Under the pieces are notes generated by a model. That model searched no databases. It was not told where the DNA came from and saw nothing but the letters and a program-made list of their open reading frames with translations. DNA of 64,000 nucleotides from Candidatus Woesearchaeota archaeon (GTDB taxonomy: Archaea > Nanobdellota > Nanobdellia > SCGC-AAA011-G17 > PNOQ01): the NCBI GenBank assembly GCA_043812195.1, contig JBDRML010000029.1:14212-78211 (forward strand), given 5' to 3'. Of this stretch, positions 27,939-62,071 are shown one piece after another. Positions within the stretch are counted from its first letter, which is position 1. Every line of letters begins with the position of its first letter. The position numbers and the translations under genes were made by a program.

Positions 27939-28059
27939 CTCGCGGTAGCTCAATGGCAGAGTACTCGGCTGTAGATGCTATTCGACTAGGCGCTTAGCTT
28001 TGAATGAAAAATAGCCAGCCGATCCCGAGAGGTTGTGGGTTCAAATCCCACCCGCGAGA
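27939..28059 (+). tRNA. tRNA-Tyr(GUA) with a 49-nt intron (27975..28023) at canonical 37/38
   Basis: Hand fold: acceptor CTCGCGG/CCGCGAG with the archaeal C1:G72 pair, anticodon arm CTCGG-CTGTAG..C-CCGAG, T arm GTGGG-TTCAAAT-CCCAC and discriminator A. The BHB has bulges AG|A and AU|C. Confidence 0.85.
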
Positions 28060-28122: not shown

Positions 28123-28782
28123 ATGAGAATCACCAAGAAGTTAGCAGAGTTATGTGGTATCATAGTTGGAGATGGTTGTATAACTTATTATAAAAAGAAT
28201 GGTGATTATAAGGTAGAAATTTTTGGAGATTATAAAGAATTAGAATATCATAGTTACATAAAAACTCTTTTCAAAGAAATATTCAATAAAGAGCCAAAAA
28301 CAAAATTGAATAAAGATGGAATTTCTCTTTGCTTACATTCAAAAGAAGTCTTAGACAAATTGATAGGATTAGGTATTCCAATAGGAAAGAAAAAAGATGT
28401 AATTAGAATTCCTCCCAAAATAATGTCAAACAAAGGATTAACAAAATGTTTTATTAGAGGATTAGCCGATACAGATTTCAGTGTTTGTTTTAAAAAAGGA
28501 GGAAGAATCAAAAACTCTTATCCTAGAATTACTGTAGAAATGCATTCTAAAAAACTGATAAAAGATATAAAACTAAGTTTGGAATCTTTAGGAATTACAT
28601 GCTACTACTATGAAAGAACCAGAAATACACCTTTTGGTATATTTCAATCATATAGTTTAGATATAAATGGAAACAAAAAATTTGAAAAATGGATGAGATT
28701 AATAGGATTTAAAAATAAAAAACATCTATCAAAAATAGAATTCTGGAAGAAAAACGGATATTATCAAAAGAATTGTTCTTAA
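28123..28782 (+). CDS. Free-standing LAGLIDADG homing endonuclease (two-motif)
   Basis: LAELCGIIVGDGCI and FIRGLADTDFSV. It is clearly paralogous to the intron ORF at 32033 (GIPIGKKKDVIRIP vs GLPLGKKENINIP; YPRITVEM vs YPRIQISS). Confidence 0.8.
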   Translation: MRITKKLAELCGIIVGDGCITYYKKNGDYKVEIFGDYKELEYHSYIKTLFKEIFNKEPKTKLNKDGISLCLHSKEVLDKLIGLGIPIGKKKDVIRIPPKIMSNKGLTKCFIRGLADTDFSVCFKKGGRIKNSYPRITVEMHSKKLIKDIKLSLESLGITCYYYERTRNTPFGIFQSYSLDINGNKKFEKWMRLIGFKNKKHLSKIEFWKKNGYYQKNCS

Positions 28783-30875: not shown

Positions 30876-31709
30876 ATGAAGAAGATTCAAGAAATTTTAG
30901 GTATAGCAGTAACAAGGATAGCAAGAGAAATCGAAGCTAATATTATTGTTTCTATAGATTCTATTCCAGATATAGAATACGAAGATACTGATGATTTTCA
31001 GGTAAAGATAATAATATTCAAAAAAATAAAAGAGGAGGTCTACAGAAAAACTGAATATGTCATAAAAATAAAAAACTTAGAATATGGATCAATTACACCA
31101 GTAAAAGAAATAATAATGGATGCAATTACAAAAGGTCACATTAATAAAGGCGATACAGTAATATGCACCCAAGACAGCAAATTAGGATTTGGCTATAAAG
31201 GAGTTATTTTTATATTTGAAATAGACGATACTTTCTTCCAAATAAGCAGACATAAATTATCTGAAAAAATAGGATCAGAAGTTATAGAAGCAACATTAAA
31301 TATATCAAAAGAAATAGCACAAGAAGGCAGAGAAGGAAAAAGAGTTGGAACAGCTTTTATAATAGGAAATATATCAGAACTATCAAAATATATGAAACAA
31401 TTAATTATTAACCCATTTCAAAACCTAGAAGAAAGACCTAAAGTTACAGACCCAAAAATGAGAGAATCAATAAAAGAGTTTGCGCAGTTAGACGGAGTGT
31501 TTATACTAGATGAAGAAGGCCATATAATAAGTGCAGGAACATATATAAATATAGATCATTCAGATATAAATTTGCCAGAGGGTTTTGGGACAAAACATAG
31601 ATCAGCTATAGCTTTAACAAGTAAAACAGATTCATTAGCTATTGTTATTTCAGAATCAGGTGGAAAAATAAGAGTCATAAAAGCAGGAAAAATTATACTT
31701 AAAATCTAA
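30876..31709 (+). CDS. dacZ: Diadenylate cyclase, archaeal DacZ-type (N-terminal regulatory domain + DAC domain)
   Basis: DAC motifs LDGVFIL (DGA-like) and GTKHRSA (RHR-like), with GTAFIIG upstream. Confidence 0.7.
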   Translation: MKKIQEILGIAVTRIAREIEANIIVSIDSIPDIEYEDTDDFQVKIIIFKKIKEEVYRKTEYVIKIKNLEYGSITPVKEIIMDAITKGHINKGDTVICTQDSKLGFGYKGVIFIFEIDDTFFQISRHKLSEKIGSEVIEATLNISKEIAQEGREGKRVGTAFIIGNISELSKYMKQLIINPFQNLEERPKVTDPKMRESIKEFAQLDGVFILDEEGHIISAGTYINIDHSDINLPEGFGTKHRSAIALTSKTDSLAIVISESGGKIRVIKAGKIILKI

Positions 31710-31866
31710 ATATAACGTCTTATTTAAATACTCATCGTCTTAAAAACAAAAGCTTTATATATTACCTCTTTTCCCAGAATATATTACAAAGCAAAGGTAC
31801 CTCTCTACAATGTCCAACCATGATTACTAAAAGTCATATTTACTAACGACCTAGAGAGTGCTATGT

Positions 31867-31969
31867 GCCCTGATGGTGTAGTTGGCTATCATACGGCCCT
31901 GTCGAGGCCGTGACCCGGGTTCAAATTTCCCATAGCCTAAAAAAAGGATTGAAAGTCCCGGTCAGGGCG
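31867..31969 (+). tRNA. tRNA-Asp(GUC) with a 30-nt intron (31926..31955) in the T-loop (59/60)
   Basis: Acceptor GCCCTGA/TCAGGGC, anticodon arm CGGCC-CTGTCGA-GGCCG. T stem CCGGG (31915-19) pairs with CCCGG (31957-61). BHB: central helix UUCA 31920-23/UGAA 31950-53, bulges AA|U and AG|U. Confidence 0.85.
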
Positions 31970-31986
31970 TATCTTTGCAAAAAGAT

Positions 31987-32712
31987 GGACTGGTAGCTCA
32001 GCTTGGTAGAGCACTTGAGGAGATAAGCAAAAATGAAAGTACAAATTCCAAATGAACCAACAATCAATTTAGCAGAAGAGTTCGGAATACATATTGGTGA
32101 TGGGAGTATGAACTTTTATAAAGAAAAGGGATTGGTATCTATAGCAATAAATCCAAACGAAAAAAAATATATGGATTTCATTAAAAGACTTTATTGGAGT
32201 CTATATAAAGTAAGTGTTAACTTAAGAAATTGGAGTAGGGCATATGGATTTCAACTAAGCTCTAACGAATTGGTTGAATTCAAATATAAACAAGGTCTCC
32301 CATTAGGAAAAAAGGAAAATATAAATATTCCTCATTGGATAAAGAAAAACGAACAATATCAAAAAGCATGTCTAAGAGGAATATTTGACACAGATGGTAC
32401 ACTGTATATTGAAAAAAAGTACAATAAACCCTATCCAAGAATACAAATTTCGAGTATATCTCAAAATTTAATTAAAGATATACATGAAATATTAGTCAAT
32501 TTGGATTTTAAAGTTAGTCTATGGAAAGAAAATTTTAGAAATAAGAACTGGAAAACAAGACATGTAATTGCCTTAAGAGGATATAAACAAGTTCAAAAAT
32601 GGATGGATGAAATAGGCACTAATAATCCCAAAAATTTAGAAAAATATAATAAGCTTATCTTCAGGTGAAGCTTTTAACCAAGGGGTCGCGGGTTCAAATC
32701 CCGTCCGGTCCA
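31987..32712 (+). tRNA. tRNA-Lys(UUU) interrupted by a 652-nt intron (32018..32669) in the anticodon stem (30/31)
   Basis: Exons GGACTGGTAGCTCAGCTTGGTAGAGCACTTG and GCTTTTAACCAAGGGGTCGCGGGTTCAAATCCCGTCCGGTCCA form a perfect cloverleaf. BHB: central CACU 32012-15/GGUG 32664-67, bulges UG|A and AA|G, and a 10-bp intron helix 32019-28/32653-62. Confidence 0.85.
32033..32668 (+). CDS. tRNA-intron-encoded LAGLIDADG homing endonuclease (211 aa)
   Basis: LAEEFGIHIGDGSM and CLRGIFDTDGTLY. The ORF fills the intron: ATG is 15 nt after the 5' splice site and TGA ends 1 nt before the 3' splice site. Confidence 0.8.
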   Translation: MKVQIPNEPTINLAEEFGIHIGDGSMNFYKEKGLVSIAINPNEKKYMDFIKRLYWSLYKVSVNLRNWSRAYGFQLSSNELVEFKYKQGLPLGKKENINIPHWIKKNEQYQKACLRGIFDTDGTLYIEKKYNKPYPRIQISSISQNLIKDIHEILVNLDFKVSLWKENFRNKNWKTRHVIALRGYKQVQKWMDEIGTNNPKNLEKYNKLIFR

Positions 32713-32733
32713 CTTTTAAATTACGAGAAAAAA

Positions 32734-32973
32734 ATGGAAGAATTTGACATAAAAAAACATAGCTTAGCCACAGTACATACAAAGCTAACAGAGGAAGAAA
32801 AACAAGAGCTTCTTAAAAAATTCAACATCACAATAGATCAATTACCAATGATTCAAAAAAAAGATCCTGCTATTCAACATTTAGAACCAAGAATCGGAGA
32901 TATCATTAAAGTCATAAGAGATACTCCAACTAATAAAGATAGTCCATTCTTTAGGGTTATTGTACATGGTTAA
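32734..32973 (+). CDS. rpoH: RNA polymerase subunit H (Rpo5)
   Basis: HSLATVHTKLTEEEKQELLKKFNITIDQLPMI..DPA...GDIIKVIR. I place the start at ATG 32734, because the track's 32665 start runs through the tRNA-Lys 3' exon. Confidence 0.85.
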   Translation: MEEFDIKKHSLATVHTKLTEEEKQELLKKFNITIDQLPMIQKKDPAIQHLEPRIGDIIKVIRDTPTNKDSPFFRVIVHG

Positions 32974-61260: not shown

Positions 61261-61968
61261 ATGAATCTATCAGAAAGAGGAAAAAGGAATGTAAGAATAA
61301 GATGGAATAGAATACATCAAAAAGAGATTGATTATATAAGGAAAAATTTAGATAAAACTTTTAATTTTAAATCTAGGTTATGTGGTTACTTAGCAGGAGA
61401 TGGCAATATTCTTACTGCTAATAGCAAAACATGTACTCATTATACAATTCGTTTTTTCCCAGATCATTATTCACTAATTAAACCATTTAAAGAAGCGTTT
61501 ATCAAAACATATAATAAAAATCCAAAAGTGAAAAAATTAAAAAACTATTATTTTATAACTATTGATTCCAAACCAATAGTATATGATCTCTTGTCACTAG
61601 TTGAATTTGGTACTTCAAATTGGAGTATTCCAAATAAAATTTTAACCAATGATAAAAATAAAATAGAATGGTTAAGAGCATTTTTTGATGCTGAAGCACA
61701 TATTCATGAAAAATATATTAGAATTCAATCAGTTAATGGAAAAGGATTAAAACAAGTAAAAGAATTATTAAACCAATTTTCTATTAATTCCAAAATTTAT
61801 GAATACGTTCCAAAAAATAAAAAATGGAATAAGGTGTACATACTAAATATTTTAAGGAAAAAAGATAAAATAAATTATTTAAAATTAATAGGATTTAATC
61901 ACACCATAAAGCTTAAAAAGTTAAATAAAAATCTTGATTTTGCCTTAAATAAAGCCGCGGTCGCGTAA
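61261..61968 (+). CDS. Free-standing LAGLIDADG homing endonuclease whose last 15 nt overlap tRNA-Ser
   Basis: LCGYLAGDGNI and WLRAFFDAEAHI. I prefer ATG 61261, because the track's TTG 61210 start lies inside the promoter cassette. Confidence 0.75.
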   Translation: MNLSERGKRNVRIRWNRIHQKEIDYIRKNLDKTFNFKSRLCGYLAGDGNILTANSKTCTHYTIRFFPDHYSLIKPFKEAFIKTYNKNPKVKKLKNYYFITIDSKPIVYDLLSLVEFGTSNWSIPNKILTNDKNKIEWLRAFFDAEAHIHEKYIRIQSVNGKGLKQVKELLNQFSINSKIYEYVPKNKKWNKVYILNILRKKDKINYLKLIGFNHTIKLKKLNKNLDFALNKAAVA

Positions 61969-62071
61969 TCTGGTATCGCACAGATCCTTAAAAGAAATAA
62001 AATTTTTATGGAGTGTAAGCCTGGAAAGCCTGACCCTTTTGGGTGTCTGGGTTCAAATCCCAGTCGCGGCG
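61954..62071 (+). tRNA. tRNA-Ser(GGA), class II, with a 35-nt intron (61984..62018) in the anticodon stem (29/30)
   Basis: Acceptor GCCGCGG/TCGCGGC, 3-bp D stem GCG/CGC, anticodon arm CAG|GC-CTGGAAA-GCCTG, long variable arm ACCC-TTTT-GGGT, T arm CTGGG-TTCAAAT-CCCAG and G73. BHB: central GCAC/GUGU, bulges AG|A and AA|G. Confidence 0.8.

Follow-up and report, generated by a model that had tools for sequence, protein, structure and literature searches.

A candidate mobile bulge-helix-bulge intron carrying a LAGLIDADG endonuclease gene in the tRNA-Lys(UUU) gene of a Woesearchaeota-type archaeon

This study concerns a stretch of 64,000 nucleotides (nt) from a Candidatus Woesearchaeota genome (contig JBDRML010000029.1 of assembly GCA_043812195.1), hereafter called the window, in which a gene for tRNA-Lys(UUU) is interrupted in its anticodon stem by an intron containing the gene of a LAGLIDADG homing endonuclease (Table 1). 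The two tRNA halves are colinear and on the same strand, 652 nt apart, so that this is not a split or permuted tRNA gene. Ligated in silico, the exons give a molecule of 74 nt that is called tRNA-Lys(ttt) by ARAGORN; its acceptor stem has 7 bp, its D-arm and T-arm are normal, and its anticodon arm reads CTTGG-CTTTTAA-CCAAG. The junction of the ligated exons reads ...GAGCACTTG^GCTTTTAACC... (here and below, ^ marks the splice site or the corresponding position in uninterrupted DNA), and the 3' end of the intron joined to its own 5' end, as in a back-spliced molecule, would read ...GGTGAA^AGGAGATAAG.... The open reading frame (ORF) occupies 636 of the 652 intron nt, leaving 15 nt ahead of the ATG and a single nt beyond the stop codon, a TGA that ends 1 nt short of the 3' splice site. 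A Shine-Dalgarno-like GGAG is present about 10 nt ahead of the ATG and is sequestered in the intron helix. An initial annotation of this DNA, made from the sequence alone, had described a tRNA-Lys(UUU) with a 652-nt anticodon-stem intron nearly filled by an ORF of 211 amino acids (aa) with two LAGLIDADG motifs; every coordinate agrees with ours, ARAGORN accepts the joined exons, and the ORF has the Pfam match described below.

The exon-intron boundaries can be folded into a bulge-helix-bulge structure (BHB), in which a central helix of 4 bp lies between two 3-nt bulges on opposite strands, with the cutting sites after the second bulge base, and is flanked by helices on both sides (h and h'), the outer one being extendable by pairing of 32004-07 with 32677-80. 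The motif is not a strict but a relaxed one, since A32663, which faces the 5' bulge, has no partner.

Homologous loci were collected by fetching the DNA around close relatives and by scanning GTDB and JGI contigs. Endonuclease introns at position 30/31 were found in nine distinct lineages, the window and eight others, in four different tRNA genes (Table 1); one of them, in the tRNA-Thr(UGU) of L006, belongs to a closed Woesearchaeota genome (bin1342, CP070803.1). The initial annotation had regarded a coding intron at this position of a tRNA as unusual; such an intron is confirmed here, although it is not unique, since the family occupies several tRNA species. Once additional short introns are removed where present, the spliced products of all nine lineages are valid tRNAs according to ARAGORN, and their acceptor and anticodon stems vary among lineages by compensatory changes (e.g. 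GGACTGG/CCGGTCC versus GGGCCTG/CAGGCCC), which indicates that the two tRNA halves belong together. The possibility that the exons are unrelated fragments, which had been considered at the outset, is contradicted by the recurrence of the same split in the eight further lineages, with valid spliced tRNAs and compensatory acceptor-stem changes.

The BHB is conserved in a similar manner. In all nine lineages the four exon bases located 3-6 nt ahead of the 5' splice site are paired to the four intron bases located 3-6 nt ahead of the 3' splice site, and this central helix varies with the host tRNA while always remaining paired (CACT/GGTG, CACT/AGTG, CGAC/GTCG, CGGC/GCCG). The 5' bulge follows the pattern N-G^N: eight lineages have A as their first intron base, and L171 has T. 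The 3' bulge takes one of the forms AA^N, AG^C and TA^C. Strict 3-nt bulges occur in L171, L094 and L003/L004. The sequence of the intron helix differs per lineage, yet it always pairs. Counted in a 43-column alignment of the lineages, which was registered by hand to the proposed structure so that the values are somewhat inflated towards it, 93.6% of the BHB cells are paired against 73.8% in shuffles, none of 500 shuffles reaching the observed value, and 10 of the 16 pairs show compensatory change on both sides. Slid controls, with the partner moved by 1-3 columns, are 31-50% paired. The central helix is 100% paired with three of its four pairs compensatory, a result independent of gap placement, and seven of the eight intron-helix pairs scored across lineages have changed on both sides. 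The structure is conserved by compensatory change among homologues, and the BHB supports the splice sites as initially proposed.

Syntenic loci were then recovered through relatives of RpoH and RpoB'', whose genes are the conserved downstream neighbours and served to locate syntenic alleles. The intron is present in the window, in L084 (RpoH 96% identical), in L085-87 (81%), and in L001 and L002. It is absent from L090 (GCA_975903435.1), L174 and L175/L176 (GCA_964596705.1), which have the same order of tRNA-Asp, tRNA-Lys(UUU) and rpoH. In these, the tRNA-Lys uninterrupted at 30/31 reads ...GGTAGAGCACTTGGCTTTTAACCAAGG... and is identical to the ligated exons of the window across the D-arm and the anticodon arm, the sole exon difference being at position 5. 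Presence and absence are therefore found at one exact site in orthologous genes, and in different metagenome-assembled genomes the intron occupies the same 30/31 position of Lys(UUU), Lys(CUU), Asn(GUU) and Thr(UGU) genes. Intron-less alleles, for which the initial annotation had recommended a comparison with related genomes, thus exist at the same syntenic locus, and its suggestion of a candidate mobile tRNA intron is supported by the site-exact presence/absence and by the four host tRNA species.

The splice boundaries are set by the cloverleaf together with the exact identity of the ligated exons to the intron-less alleles (GGTAGAGCACTTG^GCTTTTAACCAAGG), and because of this match the junction is fixed independently of folding. 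As a specificity control the splice sites were moved by ±1-3 nt; ARAGORN tolerates the resulting mismatches, so that this control is uninformative and the junction rests on the identity to the intron-less alleles. These intron-less sites, being identical to the ligated exons, are the expected candidate homing target.

The endonuclease matches Pfam LAGLIDADG_3 (PF14528; E=1.3e-9, 38.6 bits against a cut-off of 22.5). Its two motifs, LAEEFGIHIGDGS and ACLRGIFDTDGTL, end in ...GIHIGDG and ...GIFDTDG and each provide an acidic residue, D23 and D121, as in two-motif enzymes. Among 34 aligned relatives D121 never varies, D23 is retained in at least 90%, and the surrounding G-x-x-D-x-D-G context is likewise conserved. 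The 158 detectable homologues come nearly all from Pacearchaeota, Woesearchaeota or Nanoarchaeota metagenomes. An AlphaFold2 model built with the 34-relative alignment (predicted local distance difference test score 94.9, predicted template modelling score 0.91) consists of two alpha-beta-beta-alpha-beta-beta-alpha halves, i.e. a pseudo-dimeric fold. A sequence search of the PDB with the endonuclease gave no meaningful match, identity to solved enzymes being 15-21%, and the fold comparison alone is informative. Foldseek against the PDB returned, with probability 1.00, the TliVMA intein endonuclease (E=7e-12), PI-PfuI, I-Tsp061I and I-DmoI, with TM-scores of 0.73/0.75 for I-Tsp061I and about 0.63/0.75 for I-DmoI. 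The protein is predicted, from a confident model, to be an enzyme of the I-DmoI/I-Tsp061I type. Among the four tRNA-Lys(UUU) intron enzymes the ratio of nonsynonymous to synonymous substitution rates (dN/dS) is 0.12-0.21, with dS at or above 1, which indicates that the ORF is maintained by purifying selection. The intron-borne endonucleases are mostly each other's nearest relatives in nearest-neighbour lists, which suggests that they are related without settling the matter; in a neighbour-joining distance tree of 132 endonucleases they were not resolved as a single clade.

Because an intact endonuclease occurs together with related genomes lacking the intron at the exact site, the element looks like a mobile tRNA intron, and we estimate the probability at about 75% that it is a mobile, protein-spliced BHB intron in the tRNA-Lys(UUU) gene of a Nanoarchaeota/Woesearchaeota-type (DPANN) archaeon. 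By analogy with known archaeal splicing and LAGLIDADG homing, the tRNA promoter would give a precursor of about 730 nt, possibly together with tRNA-Asp, in which the 3' strand of the D-stem and the anticodon-stem bases of exon 1 would pair with the final intron bases and the anticodon loop, forming the relaxed BHB. The tRNA-splicing endonuclease EndA would cleave after G32017 and after A32669, and the RtcB ligase would join the exons to mature tRNA-Lys and probably circularise the intron. The intron or the precursor would act as the mRNA of a monomeric two-domain LAGLIDADG endonuclease; as the intron encloses the ORF completely, stop codon included, translation from either is possible. This enzyme would cut intron-less tRNA-Lys DNA around GGTAGAGCACTTG^GCTTTTAACCAAGG, near position 30/31, and repair off the intron-bearing copy would spread the intron (homing). 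The EndA enzymes of DPANN archaea have been assigned a broad-specificity loop and a broad BHB specificity (PMC5829648), which fits the many non-canonical introns in the window.

Several points weigh against this interpretation. Both the activity of the endonuclease and its target site are predicted from fold and context, the BHB is relaxed by the extra A32663, and its covariation was counted in a hand-registered alignment. Moreover, the minimum free energy (MFE) structure of a mini-substrate in ViennaRNA is a register-shifted fold with the 3' bulge GAA and a 2-nt 5' bulge GG, at -21.9 kcal/mol versus -19.6 kcal/mol for the proposed BHB, the latter figure being for the fold with extended outer helix and the difference 2.3 kcal/mol. 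The proposed BHB is not the thermodynamically preferred fold, which is not a strict requirement for this class, and an MFE preferring a shifted register is usual for relaxed BHB motifs. Thermodynamics alone does not single out the proposed BHB; the comparative data favour its register. Of the hand-folded BHB in the initial annotation, the pairing is correct base by base, but the motif is relaxed rather than strict and the shifted register is more stable. Finally, the stable placement of many relatives beside tRNA-Ile, described below, implies that some members of the family could be domesticated rather than selfish.

Extended to the window, the last point would mean that the intron is spliced, but that its LAGLIDADG protein has become a DNA or RNA binder, such as a WhiA-like regulator or a maturase-like helper, with a host function linked to tRNA genes. 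Most relatives are indeed free-standing, 20-30 nt upstream of tRNA-Ile(GAT) in many Woesearchaeota/Pacearchaeota genomes, resembling vertical conservation; some are named WhiA by JGI, WhiA (8dy9) is among the structural matches, and purifying selection is compatible with any function. However, both metal-binding aspartates have been kept, D121 in all aligned relatives, the top structural matches are active intron and intein endonucleases, and BHB introns need no maturase. Syntenic loci also differ in having or lacking the intron at one exact site, and the same position is occupied in four tRNA species, which is a pattern of mobility, and we consider domestication unlikely.

The frequent occurrence of free-standing relatives beside tRNA genes could likewise mean that tRNA-Lys is a pseudogene, broken by a free-standing endonuclease gene, from which the "intron" is never removed, another gene supplying tRNA-Lys(UUU). 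Splicing is deduced here, and of this genome the sequence examined was the window. Against this, both exons are perfect in nine lineages, with compensatory changes in the acceptor and anticodon stems, and in relatives lacking the intron the same syntenic gene is the tRNA-Lys(UUU). Covariation between the terminal 3' bases of the intron and exon 1 preserves the 4-bp central helix, which would have no explanation if the RNA were not processed, and a pseudogene is therefore very improbable. The intron might also be a self-splicing group I (or group II) intron with a LAGLIDADG gene, of the sort known from tRNA and rRNA genes of bacteria and organelles; group I introns are known from archaeal rRNA genes, often with LAGLIDADG genes (PMC6125680), and bacterial ones enter tRNA anticodon loops. 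The present insertion lies instead in the anticodon stem, with a covarying BHB. No group I or group II family of Rfam matched at E<=10 in 31700-32900, the ribozyme core (P3-P9) was not found, and there is no room for one because the ORF takes up nearly the whole intron, so that we attach almost no probability to a ribozyme. The reading as a mobile, protein-spliced BHB intron is the one retained in what follows.

Table 1. Features of the tRNA-Lys(UUU) locus in the window and related loci elsewhere (L-numbers denote loci of the survey; positions in such loci refer to the locus)
Feature	Position	Strand	Remarks
tRNA-Lys(UUU) exon 1	31987..32017	+	31 nt; acceptor 5' strand, D-arm, anticodon-stem positions 27-30
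BHB-type intron at tRNA position 30/31	32018..32669	+	652 nt
LAGLIDADG homing endonuclease gene	32033..32668	+	211 aa, both motifs present
tRNA-Lys(UUU) exon 2	32670..32712	+	43 nt; position 31, anticodon loop CTTTTAA, anticodon-stem 3' strand, variable loop, T-arm, acceptor 3' strand, discriminator A
BHB outer helix	32008-11 with 32671-74		AGAG with CTTT
BHB central helix	32012-15 with 32664-67		4 bp; CACT with GGTG
BHB 5' bulge	32016-18		T32016 G32017 ^ A32018
BHB 3' bulge	32668-70		A32668 A32669 ^ G32670
Intron helix	32019-28 with 32653-62		10 bp; 5' strand GGAGATAAGC
tRNA-Asp(GUC) gene	31867..31969	+	read from sequence; ~30-nt T-loop intron at about 31927-31956
rpoH (Rpb5 C-terminal domain)	32734..32973	+	Pfam PF01191 (Rpb5_C), 8e-22
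rpoB''	from 32960		after rpoH
Lys(UUU) 30/31 endonuclease introns			L001, L002, L171 (with the window, 4)
Lys(CUU) 30/31 endonuclease intron			L035 (= L140)
Asn(GUU) 30/31 endonuclease introns			L003; L004 (= L092, L093)
Thr(UGU) 30/31 endonuclease introns			L006, L094
Two-intron genes	L001 5955-6705, L002 192-945, L171 147-894, L035 2379-3171, L006 2934-3680, L094 821-1551
Frames extending beyond the intron	L003 706-1380, L004 2989-3663, L006 2980-3645, L094 867-1499, L035 2426-3115
T-loop introns	within L090 ~2886-2980, L174 ~2156-2247, L175 ~2144-2240, L002 ~873-945
Endonuclease ORF inside tRNA at 30/31			about 12
Endonuclease ORF directly upstream of complete tRNA		same as tRNA	about 100
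Endonuclease ORF converging on or overlapping tRNA		opposite to tRNA	about 8
Endonuclease ORF with no tRNA detected			about 15
Most remaining endonuclease ORFs		same as tRNA	just downstream of tRNA
Free-standing upstream loci			L013, L025, L028-L034, L036-L038, L041-L043, L045-L051, L055-L056, L062-L068, L075, many of L095-L170
ORF-less 30/31 introns in tRNA-Ile(GAT)			22 loci: L013-L017, L021, L029, L032, L036, L052, L064, L067, L101, L103, L114, L120, L124, L131, L137, L157, L158, L170
tRNA-Ile-like sequence	20 nt before endonuclease ATG		L029-L031, L033, L037, L042, L043, L064, L067, L115, L116, L150, L166

The tRNA-Lys gene is closely flanked on both sides. The tRNA-Asp(GUC) gene ends at 31969, 17 nt upstream of exon 1, and the ATG of rpoH at 32734 lies 21 nt past exon 2, distances that the initial annotation had given and that can be read from the sequence. 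In the tRNA-Asp, our tRNA-half finder pairs the acceptor strand GCCCTGA with TCAGGGC, leaving a "T-loop" of 37 nt, and the Rfam tRNA model gives a partial match (19.2 bits, 31873-31933). The order tRNA-Asp/tRNA-Lys/rpoH is conserved at syntenic loci, rpoH being the downstream neighbour in L001, L002, L084-87, L090, L174 and L175. Judging from this conserved gene order, processing of the intron may take place at the head of the RNA polymerase operon, as the initial annotation had proposed. Comparison of RpoB'' places the window in the Pacearchaeota/Woesearchaeota/Nanoarchaeota group. Upstream of the tRNA pair lies a gene for a DisA_N/DAC-domain protein of the diadenylate cyclase type (30876-31709, + strand; 2e-20), which suggests cyclic-di-AMP signalling in this small-genome archaeon.

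Standard tools miss the tRNA-Lys gene. With default settings ARAGORN reported no tRNA in the whole 64-kb window, which contains at least four, all of them interrupted (27939-28059, 31867-31969, 31987-32712 and 61954-62071), and Rfam at the gathering threshold detected two other intron-bearing tRNAs only and not the split tRNA-Lys. A long-intron mode of ARAGORN, suggested earlier as a check, does find the ends of the gene, but the intron is forced into the anticodon loop and the tRNA is miscalled as Ile(tat). Judging from the tRNAs of the window, the host lineage has many non-canonical tRNA introns, and since all four tRNAs are interrupted, annotations of this lineage likely under-report tRNAs. 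Surveys of DPANN genomes have found incomplete tRNA sets, and "unidentified disrupted tRNA genes" have been suspected (PMC5829648). Long coding introns would account for part of this gap, and missed tRNAs bear on inferences about completeness and auxotrophy in the reduced DPANN genomes.

Additional introns were noticed in the genes studied. Most of the endonuclease-bearing tRNAs have a second short intron, either at the canonical position 37/38 or in the T-loop, and are thus two-intron genes (Table 1). The tRNA-Lys genes of L090, L174 and L175/L176 have, instead of the 30/31 intron, a short T-loop intron ending in ...TGAAAG^T, and L002 has both introns. The syntenic tRNA-Asp is uninterrupted in L174, whereas that of the window contains a T-loop intron. 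These T-loop introns look like a second, ORF-less family with a presence/absence pattern of its own.

In several homologues the reading frame of the endonuclease is not confined to the intron (Table 1). Its ATG starts at the first intron base in the Asn introns, where the stop codon is the TAA of the exon 2 anticodon loop (CTGTTAA), and in L006, L094 and L035 the frame passes through exon 2 into the second intron. For such frames, translation of the excised intron would end differently from translation of the precursor.

The family was surveyed with the tRNA-half finder, covering 149 endonuclease ORFs in 170 loci, of which nearly all are tRNA-associated; the distribution in Table 1 includes some false "inside" calls, which even the strict version of the finder still gives (e.g. 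L113). Genes of the upstream group have their stop codon 20-30 nt ahead of the tRNA start, within a TATA-like cTTATAAAt that probably serves the downstream tRNA. A tRNA-Ile(GAT) follows in 84 of the 90 non-redundant upstream cases, and 22 of these tRNA-Ile(GAT) genes are themselves interrupted at 30/31 by an ORF-less intron of 14-36 nt with the same BHB central-helix register, mostly ending in GGTGA(T/A/G). A candidate for an endonuclease in a 37/38 intron, L023, proved to lie downstream of a complete tRNA-Ile.

Both arrangements occur with tRNA-Asn(GUU). In L003 (677-1427) and L004 (2960-3711) the endonuclease gene is inside a 30/31 intron of 667 nt, and in L007 (~2225-2990) the tRNA-Asn has a 30/31 mini-intron of 16 nt (TCATGGATTGGTCGAA), while the gene of the endonuclease that most resembles the Asn intron enzymes is located 46 nt upstream of the tRNA. 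An origin of the L007 gene from a circularised intron was considered, and was not convincing as circular and linear junctions scored 87 versus 77 (L003) and 64 versus 62 (L004). The window itself contains a free-standing paralogue, a second LAGLIDADG gene (28123-28782, + strand) whose product of 219 aa is 32% identical and which has its own TATA-like box, 63 nt downstream of the tRNA at 27939-28059 (called Tyr(gta) with a 49-nt intron by ARAGORN).

In one subgroup of loci (Table 1) the sequence before the endonuclease start codon, TAGAGCATTATTTTGAT followed directly by ATG, resembles positions 21-38 of tRNA-Ile (TAGAGCACTGCTCTGATAAG), with transition differences only. In 6 of 36 loci at least 12 of 18 positions agree with the locus's own tRNA, at a constant offset, against 0.4% of control windows. 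An old 5' exon may have left this likeness behind as a relic, perhaps through a single event, given that the loci are related.

Taken together, the survey suggests traffic of the gene between a place beside the tRNA and one inside its intron, in one direction or the other. More tentatively, and as a possibility to which we give less than even odds, endonuclease-driven homing could give rise to non-canonical tRNA introns quite generally in DPANN archaea: a LAGLIDADG lineage living beside tRNA genes would repeatedly enter or leave 30/31 BHB introns, spread them between tRNA species and genomes, and leave introns of 14-36 nt in tRNA-Ile and tRNA-Asn after loss or relocation of the ORF. L003/L004 and L007 would then be two stages of the cycle. 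If true, archaea would possess a protein-spliced equivalent of "collaborative homing", a route to mobile introns and a model reportedly put forward by Bonocora and Shub.

The origin and movement of archaeal, and ultimately eukaryotic, tRNA introns is an old question, and the answers proposed, intron transposition and descent from group I introns, have come without a demonstrated agent. An intact endonuclease in a tRNA BHB intron, together with intron-less target alleles, provides a directly testable mechanism, for which this analysis defines the enzyme to be produced recombinantly, a target of 27 bp and mini-substrates for EndA. We found no report of endonuclease-encoding archaeal tRNA introns in the open-access literature, including a 2026 genome survey of Nanobdellota, although an earlier description is possible; the words homing and LAGLIDADG are absent from the two dedicated tRNA-intron reviews of 2014.

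Several known systems can be compared with this intron. Bacterial and organellar group I tRNA introns are likewise intervening sequences in the anticodon arm of a tRNA and potentially mobile, whereas the present intron is without a ribozyme, so that its splicing must be carried out by proteins. Non-canonical archaeal tRNA introns are short, of the order of tens of nt. The tRNA-Lys intron differs from them in its length of 652 nt and in being coding, as they are not known to carry a protein gene. It resembles those of Thermoproteales, ARMAN/Micrarchaeota and Nanoarchaeota in its location outside position 37/38, in the occurrence of several introns per gene, in the relaxed BHB and in the dependence on a broad-specificity EndA (PMC5829648; PMC4090602). 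SegB of phage T4, encoded in a tRNA cluster, is a free-standing homing endonuclease beside its target genes (PMC2330249). Most relatives of the window enzyme are similarly free-standing, upstream of tRNA-Ile(GAT), the tRNA having an ORF-less 30/31 intron at 22 loci, which is the arrangement proposed in collaborative homing as the precursor of endonuclease-bearing introns. Unlike in SegB and collaborative homing, the gene of the window sits inside the intron, the introns are of the BHB type and not group I, and the system is known here from sequences alone.

The closest parallel is provided by archaeal rRNA genes, in which LAGLIDADG genes within BHB introns are well established (PMC4496867; PMC6125680). 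Our comparison set comprised I-DmoI of the Desulfurococcus mobilis 23S rRNA gene, I-Tsp061I, I-PorI, I-ApeI and I-Vdi141I. Like these rRNA introns, the tRNA-Lys intron is predicted to be protein-spliced, is nearly filled by a monomeric two-motif LAGLIDADG gene and resides in a highly conserved gene of a stable RNA, and the top structural matches of its endonuclease include I-Tsp061I and I-DmoI. Unlike them, its host is a tRNA and its insertion lies in the anticodon stem at 30/31, where the BHB is made of D-stem and anticodon-loop bases and therefore competes with the cloverleaf. The machinery is thus already known, and what is new is the tRNA host, the non-canonical position and the link to free-standing relatives beside tRNA-Ile; the element looks like a coding mobile intron of a type that had been described, until now, in archaeal rRNA genes alone.

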